Shown: one piece after another, positions 3,725 to 42,835 of the stretch | How positions within the stretch are numbered: the first letter of the stretch is position 1 | How the letters are laid out: the number at the start of each line of letters is the position of its first letter | Position numbers and translations under genes: made by a program | Source: an uncultured Bacilli bacterium | GTDB taxonomy: Bacteria; Bacillota_I; Bacilli_A; RF39; UBA660 | Length of the DNA: 52,219 bases | NCBI GenBank assembly: GCA_944332535.1 | Contig: CALVKE010000025.1 | Span: 1-52,219 of the forward strand | Reading direction: 5' to 3' | Notes under the pieces: model-generated | What the model saw: the letters and a program-made list of their open reading frames with translations, nothing else | What the model was told of the DNA's origin: nothing | Database searches by the model: none

Positions 3725-3989
3725 TGCGTCACCTCACCTTCCTTTATATTCCTTTTACGACTCGTACATAAAAATCTTTTACCGCTTATGCACGATTAAA
3801 TCATAGCATGGATAATTTGCGAATTTTGTCGAATTTTAGTAAAAGGACAAAATTCTATCTATTTTCTATTAAAATCTACAAATTTTGGTATAAAACAAGG
3901 AGAATTTCGACGTTATTTTCCCTTTCAACAAGAATCCTCATCATTTTTTAATAAGATCGTATAATGGTAATTGGATGGAGGAAAGAAGA

Positions 3990-4604
3990 ATGAAGACATA
4001 CTTTTTAAATCATTGTATATCTGCAGTAAAGGGTAACTTTCCAGAATACAGTGAGGAACAACTATTAGAAATTCGTTATGGAATCGAGAGTATCTATCTA
4101 TCCATTTCTAAAGTTGTCGTAATATTATTTATTACTTGGATCTTTGGATTCTTTCAAGAAGCGGTTATCTTACTTTTTCTATTTAATCTTTTAAGAATCC
4201 CGGGATTTGGACTTCACGCATCAAAAAGTTGGATGTGTTGGATCTCTTCTAGCATTACTTTTATCGGTGTTCCCCTATTATGCCAATGGATAGAAATTCC
4301 ACGAAGTCTAATGATTCCACTTTCTCTCTTTTGTATCTTGAACTTTTGGTTCTTTGCACCAGCTGATACAAAAAAGCGTCCATTAGTAAACAGAAAAAAA
4401 AGAATGATGTATAAATTAATAACGGTTACTGTCTCTATCATTTATACTTACTTCATTCTTACTACATCCAATGTCTTTTTACGAAATGCGTTATTTTGCG
4501 CTATGCTTATTGAATTGGTACTAATACATCCGGTGACTTATCGACTATTTAAATTACCTTATAATAACTATAAGTCATATGTATTTAGTAATAAATTAGG
4601 TTAG
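3990..4604 (+). CDS. agrB: AgrB-family accessory gene regulator protein B (AgrD-processing membrane peptidase)
   Basis: Multi-TM ORF resembling AgrB (..RIPGFGLHASKSWMCWISS..). The ATG at 3990 follows a GGAGGA RBS; the ORF-track start at 3975 is probably too long. Directly followed by an AgrD-like mini-ORF. Confidence 0.85.
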   Translation: MKTYFLNHCISAVKGNFPEYSEEQLLEIRYGIESIYLSISKVVVILFITWIFGFFQEAVILLFLFNLLRIPGFGLHASKSWMCWISSSITFIGVPLLCQWIEIPRSLMIPLSLFCILNFWFFAPADTKKRPLVNRKKRMMYKLITVTVSIIYTYFILTTSNVFLRNALFCAMLIELVLIHPVTYRLFKLPYNNYKSYVFSNKLG

Positions 4605-22438: not shown

Positions 22439-23329
22439 TTAATGATTGGAAGCTCCAATAATTTCTAAGATTCGATTTAGATCATTGTTGTTTTCAAAGG
22501 AAATAACGATTTTTTTGTTTTTTATTTTTACTTTTGTTCCTAATCGATCAAAAAGAGATTCTTCTATATATTTATATTCATTATTTCTAGGTACTTTTTG
22601 AAGAGGATTACGTTTTCTAAAATCTCCTTTGGTAACAATGTCTTCGACTTCTCTGACACTTAAATGTTCGTTTACGATACGATTAGCTAAGGTTAATACT
22701 TTTTCGTCGTCTTCAATTTTACTTAGAATTCTAGCGTGTCCCATGGAAATTTGATCTTTCATGACAAATGTTTTCACTAGTTCTGGCAAAGATAAAAGTC
22801 CTATTGTATTCGTAATGTGAGTACGACTTTTTCCAAGTCGACGTCCTAGTTCTTCTTGCGTTAAGCAAAGCGTATCGAGTAATTTACGATAAGCTTCGGC
22901 TTCTTCTAAAGGATTGAGGTTTTCTCTTTGTAAGTTTTCCAAAAGGGCAATTTCCATCATTTGGGCATCGCTAAAATCACGAACAACGGCAGGAATAGTT
23001 GTTTTTCCGGCAAGTTGAGAAGCTTTTACCCGTCGTTCTCCGGCAATGATATCGTATCCTTTAATGCTTTTCTTTACAATAATAGGTTGGAATACTCCAT
23101 AATTTTTGATAGATTCTGCTAATTCTTCTAGTTTTTCTTGATCAAAGACTTGCCGTGGTTGATAAGGGTTCGCCCGAAGGGATGAAATCTCTACCTCTAT
23201 AATTGCATCCTTTGGAGCTTGTTCGATAATTTTTTCTTCTACTTTTTCATAGTCGATTGGCTCATTGTTAAACAATTCTTCTAGTCCACGTCCAAGAGCT
23301 CTTCTTTTATTGTTGTCCATTTCTTGCAA
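22439..23329 (-). CDS. parB: Chromosome partitioning protein ParB/Spo0J (parS-type recognition helix)
   Basis: 296-aa ORF with the GERR CTP-binding box (IIAGERRVKA); HTH region GKSRTHITNTIGLLSL...SMGHAR carries ParB-type residues (R, T, G) at the positions reported to separate parS from NBS recognition. Confidence 0.93.
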   Translation of the reverse strand: MQEMDNNKRRALGRGLEELFNNEPIDYEKVEEKIIEQAPKDAIIEVEISSLRANPYQPRQVFDQEKLEELAESIKNYGVFQPIIVKKSIKGYDIIAGERRVKASQLAGKTTIPAVVRDFSDAQMMEIALLENLQRENLNPLEEAEAYRKLLDTLCLTQEELGRRLGKSRTHITNTIGLLSLPELVKTFVMKDQISMGHARILSKIEDDEKVLTLANRIVNEHLSVREVEDIVTKGDFRKRNPLQKVPRNNEYKYIEESLFDRLGTKVKIKNKKIVISFENNNDLNRILEIIGASNH

Positions 23330-24095
23330 TCACTTCCTTTGCTAAATTAATATAAGCTTCCGATCCACGACTTTTGGGATCATAAGCTAATATCGGTTTT
23401 CCATGACTTGGTGCTTCCGTTAAACGAATTAATCTTGGAATAATCGTATCATACACTCTTTCTTTAAAGTAACGGCGAATATCTTCTACTACTTCTAGTC
23501 CTAAGTTCGTTCTAGAATCTAACATGGTAAGAAGTACTCCTTCAATATCCAAATTAGGATTCAAGTTTTTCTGTGCTAACATGATGGTATTTAACAATTG
23601 CATAATTCCTTCCAGTGCAAAAAATTCGCATTGTACCGGAATAATTACAGAATCCGATGCAGTTAGGGCATTGGTCGTAATCAAGCCTAGCGATGGGGGA
23701 CAATCAATAATCATAAAATCAAAGGTGTTTTTCAATTTTTCGATCGCATTTTTTAGCTGGGATCCTTTCGAAAAATTTTCTTCCGTCTTACTTTTTTCAA
23801 TCAACTCGATATCTACTCCTGCTAAATTAATCGTTGCTGGTAGCACATATAAATTACGATATCTCGTCTTTACAATAGCTTCTTCTACCGGACATTTTCC
23901 AGTAATCACATCATAAACACTCTTATCGATATCTCCTTTATTAATTCCAACTCCCGTCGTCGTATTTCCCTGAGGGTCTAAGTCAATCAATAACACTCTT
24001 TTTCCAAGATATGCTAAAGACGCAGAAAGATTAATGCTGGTCGTTGTTTTTCCTACTCCGCCTTTTTGATTAACTAATGAAATAATCTTCCCCAT
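23307..24095 (-). CDS. parA: Chromosome partitioning ATPase ParA/Soj
   Basis: Deviant Walker A KGGVGKTT; the ATG at 24095 follows an AAGGTG RBS (the ORF-track GTG at 24104 is also possible). Confidence 0.95.
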   Translation of the reverse strand: MGKIISLVNQKGGVGKTTTSINLSASLAYLGKRVLLIDLDPQGNTTTGVGINKGDIDKSVYDVITGKCPVEEAIVKTRYRNLYVLPATINLAGVDIELIEKSKTEENFSKGSQLKNAIEKLKNTFDFMIIDCPPSLGLITTNALTASDSVIIPVQCEFFALEGIMQLLNTIMLAQKNLNPNLDIEGVLLTMLDSRTNLGLEVVEDIRRYFKERVYDTIIPRLIRLTEAPSHGKPILAYDPKSRGSEAYINLAKEVIARNGQQ

Positions 24096-24189
24096 CTTCT
24101 TCACCTTTTCCTTATAAATCGTTCTTTTTTTATTGTATCAAAATTTTTCTTCTTTTGAAATGACTTTTGTCAAAAAAAAGTAGAAAGTT

Positions 24190-25209
24190 CTACTTTTCCA
24201 GATCTTCTTTATTAATATTAATAATAATTTGGTATTTTCCGCCCATGTCAGTTTCTTCTACTGAAACTTGCATTCCTTTATGTCTAAGTTCTGGAATTAC
24301 ATCTCTTACTAAATTAATAGCGTCTTTTAACTTAAAAGATTCTACAAAATTTGCATCTTTTAGCGAATTGTTGTTAGAATTTGTATTCGTTGGCTGCAAT
24401 AATTCATCCTCTTCTTGGATCATCACCGGACTTGCTGGAGGAGTAAAGGTCGAGAAAGAACTTTCCGTTTTTGGTGGATTCATTCCCGGTTTTGTTTCTT
24501 CGAACGATTCTTTTTCGGAATGAAACTCTATTGGATTTTTTAAAAGGTCTTCTAATTTTGGTGCATTCGACTCTTTCTCTATCATATTTTCTTCCATAGA
24601 AATGTTCGCTGTAGGACTCATTTCTTTAATGGCATGATCTAATTCTCTTACTGTCATTCTTCCACGAATAACGCGGTTTAACATTTCTACTTGCTCATTG
24701 GGATTTTCAATTGCCAATAAACTACGCGCGTGACGTTCTGAAATTTGATCATTTAATAAGGCTTCTTGTACTTCATCTGTTAACGAAAGTAATCTTAATT
24801 TATTGGCGATGGCCGCTTGACTTTTTCCCATCGTTTTCCCTAATTCTTCTTGGGTCATAGAGTCTAACTCTAATATTTTTTGATATGTTCTCGCTTCTTC
24901 AATAGCCGTTAAATCTTTTCTTTGCAGATTTTCTAACAGTGCGACTTTACTTGCTTCTTTATCATCCAAGTTCCGAATAATCGCAGGAATTTTCGTAAGA
25001 CCTGCCAAAGCAGAAGCTTTATATCGTCTCTCTCCGGCAATAATTTCAAACTTTTCTCCAATTTTTCTGACAATAATCGGCTGGATTACCCCATGTTCTT
25101 TGATCGAAGTTGCTAACTCTTTGAGTGCCGTTTCGTCAAATTTTTCTCTTGGTTGAAAACGATTTGGTATAATATCATCTAAATATAGCTCTACTACTTC
25201 ATTTTGCAT
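24190..25209 (-). CDS. noc: Noc-type ParB paralog (NBS-type recognition helix), atypical N- and C-terminal architecture
   Basis: 339-aa ORF in the rsmG-noc-parA-parB position. It has PNRFQPR and GERR boxes. The HTH GKSQAAIANKLRLLSL...ISERHAR carries Noc-type Q, K and R at specificity positions. It has no N-terminal extension and carries a low-complexity insert of roughly 100 aa. Confidence 0.85.
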   Translation of the reverse strand: MQNEVVELYLDDIIPNRFQPREKFDETALKELATSIKEHGVIQPIIVRKIGEKFEIIAGERRYKASALAGLTKIPAIIRNLDDKEASKVALLENLQRKDLTAIEEARTYQKILELDSMTQEELGKTMGKSQAAIANKLRLLSLTDEVQEALLNDQISERHARSLLAIENPNEQVEMLNRVIRGRMTVRELDHAIKEMSPTANISMEENMIEKESNAPKLEDLLKNPIEFHSEKESFEETKPGMNPPKTESSFSTFTPPASPVMIQEEDELLQPTNTNSNNNSLKDANFVESFKLKDAINLVRDVIPELRHKGMQVSVEETDMGGKYQIIININKEDLEK

Positions 25210-31649: not shown

Positions 31650-31705
31650 GTTTTAAGTTACAATAAGAAGCAGTCGAATATAAAAAACGAGGGGGAGGAG
31701 TGAAG

Positions 31706-33052
31706 ATGAATGAAAAAATTATCTGGTCTAATTTTTTAAATCTCATCAAGAATGAAGTTACATCTTTATCTTTCGAAACCTGGTTTAAAGATACAGAGCT
31801 TCACGAAATCAAAGAGAATAGGGCAGTAATCGTTGTACCGATGCCCATTCACAAAAAGCATCTATCAGATAAATACATGGATTTAATTAAAGAAACCTTA
31901 AAAAGCATTGATGGCGTCGATTATGAAATTTCCTTTTTATTAAAAGATGAATTAATGCAAGAAGAGAAGAAAGACTTGGCACCTCCAATGGAACCAGTAC
32001 ACTTCTCCTCTAATTTAAAAAGTAACTACACGTTTGATACATTTATTGTAGGAAATAGTAACAAGTTTGCTCATGCGGCGGCCTTATCCGTTGCCGAAAA
32101 TCCTGGTAGAATGTACAATCCACTTTTTATTTATGGAAATAGTGGACTAGGAAAAACGCATTTAATGCACGCAATTGGAAACCATATTGTCAAAACAAGT
32201 AATAAAAAAGTACTATATGTTACAAGTGAACAGTTTATTTCCGACTTTTTAGGAATTAACAAAAAAGATGAGTTTGGAAATAACTTTAATTATGTGGAAT
32301 ACTTTAAAAATAAATATCGAACAGTTGATGTCTTAATTATTGATGATATCCAATTTTTAGGAGGGGCAACCCAAACACAACAAGAATTTTTTCATACGTT
32401 TAATACTTTATATAGTGATAATAAACAAATTATTATTTCATCCGATCGTTCCCCAGATGATTTGAAATTATTAGAGGATCGACTTCGGACTAGGTTTTGT
32501 TGGGGTCTTACCGTGGATATTTTTCCACCAGATTTTGAACTGCGGATTGCTATTTTAAAGAAAAAGATAGTAGGGGGAGCAGTGGAAAAAAATATACCAG
32601 AAGATGTCATTGAATACATTGCATCCAATATGGGAAGCGATGTTAGACAACTAGAAGGTTCCATTACCCGGCTACTTGCTTATTCTACCATTATGGGTGG
32701 AAGCGAAATTACCTTGGATCTTGCCATTGAAGCTTTAAAAGATTACGTAAATAAAGGAATTAGTGAAAAAGATAATCTTCATAAGATTCAAAAAGTAGTA
32801 GCCGAATTTTTCCAAGTAACCGTAGAAGATTTAAAAAGTAAGAAAAGAAGTTCTAATTTGACTTTTCCGAGACAAGTCGCAATGTATTTGTGTAGAACGT
32901 TAACGGGAGAATCCTTTCCTAAAATAGGAACAGAATTTGGTGGAAAAGATCATTCTACAGTAATGCATTCTTGTGATAAAATTGAAAGAGAGATCAAATC
33001 TAATAAAGAACTTGCAAATATTGTCGAAAAAATAAAGAGTAATATCACTTGA
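31706..33052 (+). CDS. dnaA: Chromosomal replication initiator DnaA
   Basis: AAA+ motifs (GNSGLGKTHL, IDDIQF) and the domain IV DnaA signature; the ATG at 31706 lies 7 nt after GGAGG (the ORF-track GTG at 31700 is less likely). Confidence 0.97.
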   Translation: MNEKIIWSNFLNLIKNEVTSLSFETWFKDTELHEIKENRAVIVVPMPIHKKHLSDKYMDLIKETLKSIDGVDYEISFLLKDELMQEEKKDLAPPMEPVHFSSNLKSNYTFDTFIVGNSNKFAHAAALSVAENPGRMYNPLFIYGNSGLGKTHLMHAIGNHIVKTSNKKVLYVTSEQFISDFLGINKKDEFGNNFNYVEYFKNKYRTVDVLIIDDIQFLGGATQTQQEFFHTFNTLYSDNKQIIISSDRSPDDLKLLEDRLRTRFCWGLTVDIFPPDFELRIAILKKKIVGGAVEKNIPEDVIEYIASNMGSDVRQLEGSITRLLAYSTIMGGSEITLDLAIEALKDYVNKGISEKDNLHKIQKVVAEFFQVTVEDLKSKKRSSNLTFPRQVAMYLCRTLTGESFPKIGTEFGGKDHSTVMHSCDKIEREIKSNKELANIVEKIKSNIT

Positions 33053-38057: not shown

Positions 38058-40508
38058 ATGGACAGATTAGAACAAAATAATATTGTAAAAGAAGTAAAAG
38101 ACTCTTTTATTGATTATTCTATGAGTGTTATTACAGCAAGAGCAATTCCGGATTTACGGGATGGTTTAAAGCCGGTTCATCGTCGTATTTTATATTCGAT
38201 GTATGAATCTGGTTATACCCCTGATAAACCTCATAAGAAGAGTGCAAAAACAGTCGGAGAGGTTATGGGTACTTACCATCCACATGGAGATAGTTCCATT
38301 TATGAAGCGATGGTTCGAATGGCTCAAGATTTTTCTTATCGGTATATGTTAATTGATGGACATGGTAACTTTGGTAATATAGAAGGTTCTGGTGCTGCTG
38401 CCATGCGTTATACCGAAGCTAGATTGTCTAAGATTTCGCTTGAACTATTAAGAAATATTAATAAAAATACGGTTAATTTTGAATCAAACTATGATGAATC
38501 TACAAAGGAACCTTCTGTGTTACCTTCTCGATTCCCAAATATTTTAGTAAATGGTACAACGGGTATTGCTGTTGGAATGGCTACTAATATTCCACCGCAT
38601 AATTTGAGAGAAGTAATCAATGGATGTGTTGCATATATTGATAATCCTAATATTGATGTAGCTGGATTGATGCAACATATTAAAGGGCCTGATTTTCCAA
38701 CGGGAGCGATTATTTTAGGAAATAGTGGTATCAGAAAAGCTTACGAAACTGGTAGGGGAACGATTACTATTAGAAGTCGTGCTCAAATAGAAGAAAAAAA
38801 TGGTAAGCAATATATTATTATCACAGAAGTTCCATATGGAGTGAATACTTTAGAGTTAAAAAATAAAGTAGCGGAACTTGTACATAATAAAACGATTGAA
38901 GGTATCGCAGATTATCATTCTGATTTGAAGAATGGTATTAAGATTACGATTACTTTGAAAAAGGACGCCAACGCGCAAGTTGTCTTGAATAAATTGTATA
39001 AACATACGGCTTTTCAAACGACTTATGGAATTATTTTCTTGATGCTAGATCAAGGAGTTCCAAAAACACTTGGTTTATATGATATCATTTCAAAATATAT
39101 TGATTTCCAAAAGGAAGTTATTATTCGAAGAACTAAATTTGATTTAGAAAGTGCTGAAAAACGTGTTCATATTTTAGAAGGATTGAAGATTGCTTTAGAT
39201 CATATTGATGAAGTGATTAAATTAATCCGCGGATCGAAATCCGATGAAGAAGCGAAGGCTGGTTTAATTAGTAAATTCGGTCTTTCCGAGGCCCAAGCAA
39301 ATGCAATTCTTGAGATGAGATTACGTCGTTTGACTGGTCTAGAAAGAGAAAAAATTGAAAATGAATTAAATGAGTTATTAGCATTAATCGCTGAATTGAA
39401 AGCCATTTTAAGTAGTGATGAGAGAGTATTAGAAGTTATTAAAAAAGAATTGTTAGAAATTCGCGATAAATATGGTGATGAGAGACGAACGCAAATTGAT
39501 ATGACAGCTATTGAATATATTGAAGACGAATCATTGATACCTATCGAACAAATGATTGTTACTTTAACGAACAAGGGTTATGTTAAGAGAATGCCTGTGG
39601 ATACTTATCGTACACAAAATCGAGGAGGAGTCGGAGTAAAAGGAATGGCAACTAATGAAGAAGATTTTGTGGAAAAAATGATTTTTATGGAAACCCATGA
39701 TTATATTTTATTCTTTAGTAATAAAGGAAAAGTATATCGTATGAAGGGATATGAAATTCCAGAATTTAGCAGACAAAGTAAGGGAGTGCCAATTATTAAT
39801 TTATTACCTTTGGATAAAGGGGAATTGATTACTTCTATCGTTACTTTAGATGCTAGTGAACATGACTATAAGTATTTAATGTTTGCTACTCGAAACGGTA
39901 CTGTAAAACGTACTAATATTGAGGAATTTGATAATATTCGAAATAGTGGAAAAATTGCTATTACTTTAAAAGAAGATGACGACTTGATTTCGGTTAGAAA
40001 GACTACTGGTTCTGATGAGTTTATCATTGGTGCAAGTAATGGTCGTATGGTTCGCTTTAGTGAGGAAGAAGTTAGAGTAATGGGACGTTCTGCTTCTGGA
40101 GTTAAGGGAATTGACTTAGATGGAGCTACTGTGATAGGTGCCGAAGTTATTCAGGGAAATGAAAACGTTTTGATCGTAACAGAAAAAGGATATGGTAAGA
40201 AGACTCCTATTGATGAATATCGTTTAACTCATCGTGGTAGTAAAGGAGTTAAAGCTCTTAATGTTACGGAGAAAAATGGAATGTTAGTTTCATTGAAAGC
40301 AATTAATGGAGATTACGATTTGATGATTATTACAGATAGTGGAGTCATTATGCGTATGCCAATGGATCAGATTTCTACATTAAAGCGAGCAACGCAAGGA
40401 GTTAGACTTATTAATTTAAGAGATGATCAGAAGGTCGCAACAGTTGCTCTCGTAGCAAAAGAGACTAGTGATGAAGTATTAGATGATGATAGTAAAGAGG
40501 ATGCATAA
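38058..40508 (+). CDS. gyrA: DNA gyrase subunit A
   Basis: The ATG at 38058 lies 7 nt after TAGGAGG; QRDR region ([17 protein letters not shown]), active-site AAMRYTE and a beta-pinwheel CTD. Confidence 0.98.
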
Positions 40509-40528
40509 AATGCATGCCTCTTTTTTTT
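40497..40528 (+). terminator. gyrA terminator
   Basis: Hairpin GAGGATGCAT-AAA-ATGCATGCCTC followed by T8. Confidence 0.7.
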
Positions 40529-40580
40529 GTGGATAAAAATATATTGGTTAAATAATACTCTGTGGAAATTTTAAATTTAT

Positions 40581-40604
40581 ACAATGTTTCACGTGAAACA
40601 TTGT
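40581..40604. repeat. Unit 1: solo parS, 24-bp perfect palindrome ACAATGTTTCACGTGAAACATTGT
   Basis: Core TGTTTCACGTGAAACA matches the parS consensus; no CCCGGG palindrome follows. Confidence 0.85.
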
Positions 40605-40774
40605 TATTTTTTTATCTTTTTTTATTTGTAAAAACTTTTATATAGATTAATTTGTTATGTTTTAATAATGAATTAATATATGTATGATAATGATTTATTT
40701 ATATAAAAATATAAAATAATTTGGTAATTGGAGATAGATAGCTTACATTGTTTTTTATAAAATAGTAAATATTT

Positions 40775-40846
40775 TTGCACATGTTTCACGTGAAACATTG
40801 TCAATTTGTGAATAAAAAAACATAAATTATTTCCCGGGAAATAATT
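40775..40846 (+). repeat. Unit 2: parS (40781-40798) + NBS (40825-40846)
   Basis: TTGCAC-ATGTTTCACGTGAAACAT-TGTCAATTTGTGAAT..-AATTATTTCCCGGGAAATAATT; centre-to-centre 46 bp. Confidence 0.88.
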
Positions 40847-41120
40847 TGGTTAGCAAGTATTTCATTTATTATAAAAAAATTAATATAAAATTTTATACAA
40901 GTATGTTAGGTGCTTTACTATTATATAATTTATATCAGTTAAATAGCTTTTACTTATTATCGGAACTTTATATTTTTAAAATGTCTCATGATAAGTATTT
41001 AAATAAAATAGTAAATTTATTTCCCAGAAATGAAATTTATTTAATTATAAAGGAAAAAATAAAACTAAAAATTAAGGATAATTAGAAATAATAATTTAAT
41101 TTAGTATGGATTAACATTTT

Positions 41121-41190
41121 TTGCACATGTTTCACGTGAAACATTGTTATTTTGTGAATTAAAAGTAAAAATTATTTCCCGGGAAATAAT
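41121..41190 (+). repeat. Unit 3: parS (41127-41144) + NBS (41170-41190)
   Basis: Both palindromes perfect; centre-to-centre 45 bp. Confidence 0.88.
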
Positions 41191-41304
41191 CTTCTTCTTA
41201 AAAAAATATAATTTATAATAGAAATAATAAAATATTAAGGAAGTTATATAAATAGTATTAAAAAAATAGATATACTATTTATATTCAGATAAATTTAATA
41301 TTTT

Positions 41305-41374
41305 TTACACATGTTTCACGTGAAACATTGTCAGTTTGTGGATTAAAAGTGAATTTATTTCCCGGGAAATAATT
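41305..41374 (+). repeat. Unit 4: parS (41311-41328) + NBS (41355-41372)
   Basis: Both cores perfect; 5' flank TTACAC instead of TTGCAC; centre-to-centre 44 bp. Confidence 0.88.
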
Positions 41375-41661
41375 TTTTAAAACTTTTTCATTTTATTTTA
41401 CTACAATAATTATTTATTATATAAGATTAATACAAAGTTAATATAACATATGATGATAGATGATTTTATATTATATAAATTTATATTTGGAAAATATATC
41501 TTATGATGAAGTAATAAAAAATTGTTAGAAAGCACTATATGCAAAATAATAATAATAATAACTTTTTAAAATAAGATTTTTATTTATTATAAAAAATATT
41601 ATTTTAATTATAGATATTAAGATGAACAAAAATATATTTTAATTAGTATGAACTAATATTT

Positions 41662-41732
41662 TTGCACATGTTTCACGTGAAACATTGTCAATTTGTGAAT
41701 TAAAGATATAAATTATTTCCCGGGAAATAATT
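41662..41732 (+). repeat. Unit 5: parS (41668-41685) + NBS (41711-41732)
   Basis: Both palindromes perfect; centre-to-centre 45 bp. Confidence 0.88.
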
Positions 41733-41915
41733 TGCATAATCTTTTTATATTAATTTTTAATATTTACAATGTTTTTTTGTTTTCCTATATAAGGAATTAA
41801 GTTTATATATAATAATATAAATAGAAATTTTATTTTTTTGTAGATTTTCATTTTTTAATATATAGTAGTAAAGATCGTATCAGTAGAATACTAGATAAGT
41901 AATCAAGAAAAAATT

Positions 41916-41987
41916 TTGCACATGTTTCACGTGAAACATTGCTATTTTTGAAATTAAAAAAAGAAAATTATTTCCCGGGAAATAATT
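41916..41987 (+). repeat. Unit 6: parS (41922-41939) + NBS (41966-41987)
   Basis: Both palindromes perfect; centre-to-centre 46 bp. Confidence 0.88.
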
Positions 41988-42163
41988 TAATACAATTTTA
42001 ATATTTGCTATTTCAAATGAATAATTGAAAATAGAAATCTATATGGGTAAGTTATTAAACTCTATTTATATAGGTGAATGATATTTAAAAAAATTCTTTT
42101 TAAATAAATATTTTGTATTAGTATGAAACTTATTAAAAATATTATTTATTATTATAAAAAAAT

Positions 42164-42235
42164 TTGCACATGTTTCACTTGAAACATTGTCATTTTTGAA
42201 ATTAAAAAAAGAAAATTATTTCCCGGGAAATAATT
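42164..42235 (+). repeat. Unit 7: degenerate parS (42170-42187, G->T at 42179) + NBS (42214-42235)
   Basis: ATGTTTCACTTGAAACAT has one central mismatch; the NBS is perfect; centre-to-centre 46 bp. Confidence 0.85.
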
Positions 42236-42338
42236 TTTATTGAGTTCGCACCCAAAGGTATAACTTTTTTTAAATAAAAATAGATATATTAAAGATTATA
42301 GGATAAACTTTTAAAGTTTAGATAAATCTATAGTTTTT

Positions 42339-42410
42339 TTGCACATGTTTCACGTGAAACATTGTCGTTTTTAAAATTAAAAAAGTAAAATTATTTCCCG
42401 GGAAATAATT
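42339..42410 (+). repeat. Unit 8: parS (42345-42362) + NBS (42389-42410)
   Basis: Both palindromes perfect; centre-to-centre 46 bp. Confidence 0.88.
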
Positions 42411-42588
42411 TTAAATATCTTTTCTTAGAATTTAGTATGGAGATAGTCTATTTGTTAAAGTAAATATAAACTCTATTTAATCATAAAAGACTTTATATTA
42501 TTTTATATTCATATTAGACTTAATTTTCTTTATAAAAGCCATAATAGAAAATTTGTTTATGTCTAAAATTGGTTTAACTCTAAAAAAT

Positions 42589-42659
42589 TTGTATATGTTT
42601 CACGTGAAACATTGTTAATTTGTGAATAAAAAATAAAAATTATTTCCCGGGAAATAATT
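42589..42659 (+). repeat. Unit 9: parS (42595-42612) + NBS (42638-42659)
   Basis: Both palindromes perfect; 5' flank TTGTAT; centre-to-centre 45 bp. Confidence 0.88.
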
Positions 42660-42705
42660 TAGTGAAATTATAATTTTATTTATTTAAAAAAATATAAAGG
42701 TAGGC

Positions 42706-42734
42706 TTGCAATTATTAGAAGAATATTGTATTAT
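42706..42734 (+). promoter_or_regulatory. Candidate sigma-A promoter of the SRP RNA
   Basis: TTGCAA (42706-42711), 17 nt, TATTAT (42729-42734); predicted +1 near G42741. Confidence 0.5.
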
Positions 42735-42740
42735 TAATAC

Positions 42741-42816
42741 GTGCAATAAATGCGGTGGAACCAGGTCAGGATCGGAAGATAGCATCCTTAACACTTTGCA
42801 TTTATGTGCACTTTTT
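42741..42816 (+). ncRNA. ffs: Signal recognition particle RNA, short (4.5S-like) form
   Basis: Closing stem GTGCAATAAATGC...GCATTTATGTGCAC around the conserved domain IV core CCAGGTCAGGATCGGAAGATAGCATCC (GGAA tetraloop), then a T run. Upstream DNA is unstructured and AT-rich, so no Alu domain. Confidence 0.75.
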
Positions 42817-42835
42817 ATTTTGGTGGTGATTTTAG

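Follow-up and report, generated by a model that had tools for sequence, protein, structure and literature searches.

In model Firmicutes, the ParB-parS, Noc-NBS (Noc-binding site) and DnaA-box systems are separate, and the parS sites of Bacillus subtilis are dispersed and mostly located inside genes. B. subtilis also carries DnaA-box clusters (DBCs) outside the replication origin oriC, which are oriC-proximal, contain boxes of the TTATNCACA type (Ishikawa 2007, PMC2533591; Okumura 2012, PMC3245932) and restrain initiation jointly with Spo0J/Soj (PMC3245932). In Caulobacter crescentus, partitioning requires a DnaA site located inside the parS centromere (Mera et al. 2014, as summarized in PMC4468827). 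Here, we analyze an array of paired parS and NBS sites located on a 52,219-nucleotide stretch of DNA from an uncultured Bacilli bacterium (UBA660 lineage; assembly GCA_944332535.1, contig CALVKE010000025.1), from now on referred to as the window. On the best reading, the array represents a DnaA-box/parS/NBS module that was duplicated and whose DnaA boxes have partly decayed. We assign this reading a probability of roughly 0.55.

The window spans the replication origin, and the array occupies a gene-free spacer of 17–23% G+C between gyrA and the signal recognition particle (SRP) RNA gene, about 8–10 kb from dnaA. It contains nine parS sites, eight of which are perfect copies of TGTTTCACGTGAAACA while one (42171) carries a single mismatch, as well as eight NBS, all perfect copies of ATTTCCCGGGAAAT. 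It is the sole location of these parS and NBS sites in the assembly (NBS searched at up to 1 mismatch; 1.12 Mb in 96 contigs, 33% G+C, ~90% complete). The locus represents a chromosomal ParABS centromere similar to that of B. subtilis, sharing the same 16-bp parS consensus, sites within ~10 kb of dnaA and parA and parB genes near oriC. It differs in that all sites are found in one gene-free spacer of 2.1 kb, co-oriented, paired with NBS and flanked by DnaA-box-like 9-mers. The NBS palindrome is identical to that of the Noc-NBS systems of Bacillus and Staphylococcus and a Noc-type ParB paralogue adjoins rsmG, however, all eight NBS of the assembly are part of the centromere array and not dispersed over the chromosome arms. 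Compared with the DBCs of B. subtilis, which are likewise oriC-proximal non-origin boxes of the TTATNCACA type, the boxes predicted here are far less dense and consist of single weak variants fused, at a distance of 0–9 nt, to individual parS sites. In the C. crescentus centromere as described in PMC4468827, an initiator-binding site, here a predicted one, also lies within the centromere region and links initiation to segregation. The predicted site of the present array belongs to another phylum, is repeated in each cassette and is joined to a Noc-type site. The array is a variant of known origin-region systems.

Units 2 to 9 of the array are eight cassettes of 76–78 bp each, separated by spacers of 114–298 bp. 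Every cassette has the order T-run/TTGCACA, parS, linker of 29–31 nt and NBS, with a centre-to-centre distance between parS and NBS of 44–46 bp. An earlier reading made without database searches, referred to as the sequence-only reading, had pointed out that the two cores are palindromic and yet the units are directional, and indeed all eight parS-NBS units share one orientation. In the 5' flank, the T-run is followed by TTACACA in unit 4, by TTGTATA in unit 9 and by TTGCACA in the other six units, and the linkers fall into two subfamilies comprising units 2–5 and 9 on the one hand and units 6–8 (subfamily B) on the other. Flank and subfamilies had both been described by the same reading and are present, but the linker strings quoted there are consensus forms and do not match all units exactly. 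Together with the AATTT located 3' of the NBS core, the last five linker nucleotides, AAATT, extend the NBS to a palindrome of 24 bp, which shows family-wide conservation. Because this palindrome recurs at the NBS in all relatives read, AAATT and AATTT are part of the NBS and not of the linker. All eight cassettes descend from one founder cassette, and every copy has the same direction and the same asymmetric flank because this single founder spread by tandem and segmental duplication. The founder layout would have been a TTTTGCACA DnaA-box variant, parS, 9 nt, a TGTGAATAA DnaA-box variant, ~12 nt and the 24-bp NBS palindrome. On this account of the direction, the 5' flank most probably represents a DnaA box abutting parS. 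The case is weaker for the linker, which would hold a second, outward-facing box, kept in units 2–5 and 9 and lost in units 6–8. The remaining linker is a passenger with no function of its own, alike between units through descent and cassette-limited conversion.

The assignment of these 9-mers is based on the DnaA-box criterion used for B. subtilis, namely at most 1 mismatch to TTATNCACA (PMC2533591). The left flank, TTTT(G/A)CACA, passes in six of eight units, with units 7 and 9 failing, while the linker 9-mer TGTG(A/G)AT(A/T)A passes in five of eight (units 6–8 fail). Left and linker boxes both face outward from parS, and part of the variation among them concerns the degenerate fifth position (G/A in the left box, T/C in the right one), where affinity is highest with C, lower and equal with A and G and lowest with T (PMC2533591). 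Five units share TTTTGCACA as their left 9-mer, unit 4 having TTTTACACA, and the linker 9-mer is TGTGAATAA in units 2 and 9 (0 mismatches), TGTGAATTA in units 3 and 5 and TGTGGATTA in unit 4 (1 mismatch each). All cassettes are located on the plus strand. Unit 2 (40770–40847) consists of the left box at 40773–40781, parS at 40782–40797, the linker box at 40807–40815 and NBS at 40829–40842. The corresponding elements of unit 3 (41116–41192) are found at 41119–41127, 41128–41143, 41153–41161 and 41174–41187, those of unit 4 (41300–41375) at 41303–41311, 41312–41327, 41337–41345 and 41357–41370, and those of unit 5 (41657–41733) at 41660–41668, 41669–41684, 41694–41702 and 41715–41728. The three subfamily B cassettes are devoid of a linker box. 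Unit 6 (41911–41988) has its left box at 41914–41922, parS at 41923–41938 and NBS at 41970–41983, the best 9-mer of its linker showing 3 mismatches. Unit 7 (42159–42236) combines a left 9-mer with 2 mismatches (ATTTGCACA), the one-mismatch parS at 42171–42186 and NBS at 42218–42231, and unit 8 (42334–42411) has a left box at 42337–42345, parS at 42346–42361 and NBS at 42393–42406. In unit 9 (42584–42660), a decayed left 9-mer with 4 mismatches (ATTTGTATA) is followed by parS at 42596–42611, the linker box at 42621–42629 and NBS at 42642–42655. Unit 1 is a solo parS without a partner NBS, lying within a perfect 24-bp palindrome, ACAATGTTTCACGTGAAACATTGT, at 40581–40604. Upstream of it, on the minus strand, are a perfect DnaA box, TTATCCACA, at 40528–40536 and a DnaA-box-like 9-mer, TGTGGAAAT, at 40561–40569, which has 2 mismatches to TTATNCACA and is found 15 nt before the solo parS.

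Sites with at most 1 mismatch occur at a frequency of 1.13 per kb in this genome. The chance that a single founder would carry an outward box 0–1 nt from parS is ~0.002, and ~0.008 that it would have one in the linker. Among the clusters of relaxed DnaA boxes in the assembly, the array ranks second in density behind oriC, whose boxes are TTATCCACA and TTTTCCACA. The DnaA protein of this organism is canonical. Comparison of its domain IV (window 32747–33049) with the E. coli structure 1J1V showed that R399, P423, D433, H434 and H439 are identical while T435 is replaced by Ser, meaning that five of six base-contact residues are kept relative to E. coli DnaA.

Related genomes hold canonical boxes at the same positions. 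The family sample comprised 251 genomes, with family genome sizes of 0.5–1.7 Mb, and is cited below by our own labels. Clusters of parS and NBS are present in most family members and map to the same gyrA-ffs/tadA locus in those that were read. The composite parS/DnaA-box/NBS pattern was found in G002, G010, G173, G266, G132, G223, G117, L040 and L045. At the syntenic locus of G002, a member of the same genus, every 186-bp parS unit has TGTGGATAA and TGTGGAAAA upstream of parS, with TGTGGAAAA positioned 24 nt upstream, and the last unit contains two TGTGGAAAA boxes between parS and NBS. The motif TTWTNCACA is located 0–2 nt from parS in ten genomes representing nine genera, while the built-in control gave zero. 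A canonical box at 0–1 nt is either TTTTCCACA or TTATCCACA. TTATCCACA-A-parS is found in seven genomes and the fifth-base variants TTATACACA, TTATGCACA and TTATTCACA in two more (G173, G117), with G010 encoding both TTATCCACA-A-parS and TTTTCCACA-A-parS. L040 carries TTTTCCACA directly abutting parS (0-nt spacing) twice, the same geometry as in the present array with C replacing G at the degenerate fifth base. On the other side of parS, a parS-T-TGTGGATAA-att-NBS module is found in several genera, its form parS-T-TGTG(G/T/C)ATAA-att-NBS being present in G173, G266, G132 and L045, while G223 has parS, 8 nt, TGTGGATAA, 25 nt and NBS. The parS-T-TGTGAATAA of G117 and the TGTGGATTA of G266 are variants identical to those in the linker analyzed here. 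A parS followed by TGTGNAWAA within 30 nt was detected at 37 sites in 14 genomes, compared with 1 site in 1 genome for a reversed, composition-matched box control. In total, more than 10 genomes have canonical boxes either at 0–1 nt from parS or in the interval separating it from NBS, and the motif is missing in most family genomes. The present array shares its locus and its three motifs with these composite arrays but differs in that the box is 0 nt from parS on the side away from NBS, the linker is 30 nt long and the boxes are degenerate variants.

Sequence conservation within the array is confined to the cassettes. Ungapped homology between units stops 8–17 nt to the left of parS and ~5 nt to the right of the NBS core. 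Mean pairwise identity among the eight units is 0.35–0.39 just outside the cassette, corresponding to chance for this composition, and rises to 0.87 for the 9-mer left of parS, 0.98 for parS, 1.00 for NBS and 0.95 for AAATT. Inside the linker, the block TTGTCAATT reaches 0.81, the next ten, box-like columns 0.66 and the variable stretch thereafter 0.65. The spacers had been taken for otherwise unrelated AT-rich sequence, which does not apply to all of them, as spacers 2→3 and 4→5 are homologous (z = 7.1). Unit 2, spacer and unit 3 on the one hand and unit 4, spacer and unit 5 on the other represent a segmental duplication of ~530 bp. In this single pair with alignable spacers, 151 of 293 spacer positions are identical (52%), compared with 38/51 (75%) in the linker without AAATT and 17/18 (94%) in the left 9-mer (Fisher p versus spacer, 0.002 and 0.0003, respectively). 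Flank and linker have therefore changed more slowly than neutral neighboring DNA or have been homogenized.

DnaA is the likely third protein of the cassettes because the flank and five of eight linkers match the box consensus and relatives hold canonical boxes at the same positions. Of the functions previously proposed for the linker, a third protein site is thus the best supported, with the qualification that conservation does not extend to the linker as a whole. Several observations weigh against this interpretation. As the eight copies are not independent, the enrichment within the array amounts to one or two events. The oriC forms TTATCCACA and TTTTCCACA occupy 0 of 16 cassette positions, all cassette boxes being weak variants, and the motif was lost in three linkers and two left flanks. 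With a box spacing of 34 nt within and 150–350 nt between units, our own estimate using the formula in PMC2533591 gave an A value of ~0.03, far below the threshold of 0.3 for stable cooperative binding in B. subtilis. The similarity of the inner linkers could be maintained by gene conversion on its own. Among relatives, a box beside a perfect parS is found in only ~5% of the sampled family genomes, arrays such as those of G013 and G014 have no box beside parS, and the orientation of box and parS relative to gyrA varies between genomes.

If the flank and linker motifs are indeed DnaA sites, ParB-CTP clamps would load at parS and the Noc-type paralogue at NBS, while DnaA would fill the weak adjacent boxes at times of high DnaA abundance. 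The array, a centromere close to the origin, could then titrate or sense DnaA and couple initiation control to ParB/ParA, for which the DBCs of B. subtilis and the DnaA site of the Caulobacter centromere provide precedents. The anatomy of the array, its conservation pattern, the motif matches and the canonical boxes at these positions in relatives are observed, and from them we infer DnaA binding in this genome and any physiological effect. A bolder version, which we consider improbable though worth stating, would be a three-protein centromere, evolved in this lineage of small-genome gut Bacilli, in which DnaA, ParB and a Noc-type clamp are loaded side by side on every cassette, with the parS-abutting DnaA acting as a polar roadblock or partner that directs clamp spreading and feeds centromere status to initiation. 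No published system is known to couple initiation, segregation and a Noc-type function on a single DNA element in this manner. In a limited search of the full-text literature, a fusion of parS with DnaA boxes and NBS was not described for Firmicutes.

The strongest competing explanation is pure history, namely that flank and linker are functionless passengers of a duplicated founder and that their likeness to DnaA boxes is a relic or due to chance. We regard this as possible but clearly less probable than a DnaA-box module. Duplication had already been proposed by the sequence-only reading and is borne out by the founder-specific asymmetry common to all units and by the two unit pairs that are segmental duplicates. 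Further, units 6 and 7 differ at only ~4 of 78 cassette positions (~95% identical), the otherwise variable stretch being identical, and have unrelated outside flanks. Because of this likeness inside the cassette only, copying was likely limited to the cassette, most simply through gene conversion seeded by the identical palindromes, which may carry the inner linker with it. Reading of the unit alignment also reveals linker mosaics, and subfamily B kept parS and NBS without the linker motif. That the linker would prove not to be conserved in orthologous arrays had been named in advance as the mark of pure duplication history. Taken as a whole, the linker has nothing in common with the array of the same-genus genome G002 beyond the palindromes and low-complexity words, whereas the DnaA-box motif within it does recur in relatives. 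Scans of metagenomes and of a genome collection did not reveal this type of cassette elsewhere. The metagenome scan for low-divergence orthologous arrays was empty, and the genome-collection scan yielded only single parS sites in unrelated taxa and two metagenome-assembled genomes of related Bacilli with different cassettes. Pure history, however, does not easily account for the left 9-mer. Conversion should not protect a sequence at the margin of the homologous region, where erosion of the tracts is expected, and yet this 9-mer is 0.87 identical among units and matches at 17 of 18 positions in the old duplicate. The many relatives with canonical boxes in equivalent positions, far in excess of the composition-matched control, and the low chance of each motif in one founder cassette (0.002–0.008) also favor the duplicated DnaA-box module.

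Two further features of the spacers bear on array history. A decayed NBS, ATTTCCCAGAAATG, is located inside spacer 2→3 (41019–41032) and suggests birth-and-death turnover of units, in keeping with pure history. A very weak parS-like stretch is found at 40982–40997, ~37 nt upstream of the decayed NBS, whose counterpart is fully eroded in the homologous spacer 4→5. We rejected a whole decayed unit at this position, the NBS half alone being convincing. The short spacer motif noticed in the sequence-only reading is confirmed as TTAGTATGRA, present four times on the plus strand (41101, 41643, 42118, 42432) and in the array only, with an expectation of 0.54 for the whole window and four copies reached in 1 of 100 shuffles. 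As two of the four copies belong to the left flanks of units 3 and 5, which are homologous, and none was found in any relative examined, the motif is most simply a duplication relic, and a separate functional role was rejected.

It is unlikely that the linker is architectural, i.e., an A-tract bend or a nucleoid-associated-protein site that sets the face and distance of the ParB and Noc clamps. The parS-NBS spacing in this genome is narrow and the linkers are rich in A-tracts, however, A-tracts are ubiquitous in a spacer of 17–23% G+C and the narrow spacing results from common descent. The earlier proposal of a bend phasing the two clamps is not supported, as spacing and order vary among the relatives measured, with ~28–30 bp in G173, G132 and G266, 67–68 and 100 bp in G002 and 74–75 bp in G013, and either order of parS and NBS relative to gyrA, so that no helical phase is preserved.

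Even less probable are extended ParB contacts, which would make the flanks part of a longer, asymmetric parS. Throughout the family, parS is invariably preceded by A and followed by T, and about one third of flanks have TTG directly after parS. Against this, the sites bound by ParB dimers are symmetric, no TTGCAC flank accompanies the solo parS of this genome, and the outer arms of relatives differ by copy and are often symmetric. In G013 and G014 (L010 3785–3815 and 4055–4085; L011 1700–1735), each parS is part of a longer perfect palindrome with arms varying by copy (e.g., gtagtaa-parS-ttactac, agcaa-parS-ttgct, tgatcaa-parS-ttgatca). Such covarying arms hint that either the palindrome as such is under selection or the copying mechanism generates palindromes.

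The suggestion that each unit is a weak sigma-A promoter, with TTGTCA as -35 and an A/T-rich -10 hexamer firing into the NBS, is the least probable of all: three of eight units have TTGTCA or TTGTCG, 18 nt and TAAATT, GAAAAT or TAAAAT (9/12 matches), but 25 promoter-like sites compared with 26.9 ± 4.6 expected from shuffled sequence show no enrichment, half of the units have TTGTTA, TTGCTA or TTGTCG as their -35, the -10 is not conserved, the sole downstream spacer open reading frame of at least 40 amino acids has a TTG start and is AT-rich, no Rfam family was detected in the array and relatives do not have this linker. Three other candidates were rejected. An RNA element found no support in the Rfam search, in which the SRP RNA (42732–42823) was the sole match of the window. 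A mobile miniature repeat (MITE- or REP-like) was dismissed as the copies are confined to this spacer and no terminal repeats or duplications were found at cassette edges. CodY and Spo0A boxes, compared with the linker by eye, showed too many mismatches.

The arrays of relatives display additional variation. Four 186-bp units of G002 contain the near-palindrome TATTCCGTGGAATA (L009 ~3812–3827, 3998–4013, 4182–4197 and 4366–4381; one copy is a variant), whose core is intermediate between those of parS (TTTCACGTGAAA) and NBS (TTTCCCGGGAAA) and which may be a variant site for a ParB-family protein. In L012 (G004), L013 (G018), L014 (G003) and L015 (G006), short-period tandem arrays, several of them cut by contig ends, replace spaced cassettes, with the parS variant TGTTCCACGTGAAACA recurring every 74, 53 or 42 bp and NBS in G006 showing a period of 66 bp.

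The genes surrounding the array correspond to an origin region. A minus-strand block at 22.4–26.0 kb encodes ParB, ParA, the Noc-type ParB paralogue and rsmG and is followed by dnaA, dnaN, recF, gyrB and gyrA (end at 40508), the 2.2-kb gene-free stretch, SRP RNA, tadA and dnaX. The ParB/Spo0J-type gene (22439–23329, minus strand) encodes the candidate parS-binding protein and is located next to the ParA/Soj-type gene (23307–24104, minus strand). The Noc-type open reading frame (24190–25209, minus strand) scored 286 bits against TIGR04285, under the 315-bit cut-off. The dnaA gene (31700–33052, plus strand; TIGR00362, 530 bits) has oriC DnaA boxes on both sides. An open reading frame of 79 codons with a TTG start (40846–41085), found entirely inside the AT-rich spacer 2→3, is probably spurious.

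For this genome alone, the implications are more modest. The module accounts for the direction of a two-palindrome unit and leaves most of the linker as a passenger. We judge the array moderately interesting in this genome and more so as a phenomenon of the whole family. If flank and linker are real DnaA sites, ParB-parS, Noc-NBS and DnaA titration or sensing would be fused in one repeated module of ~78 bp. The links between DBCs and Spo0J/Soj in B. subtilis and between DnaA and the centromere in Caulobacter would then become testable on short, defined DNA with purified proteins.

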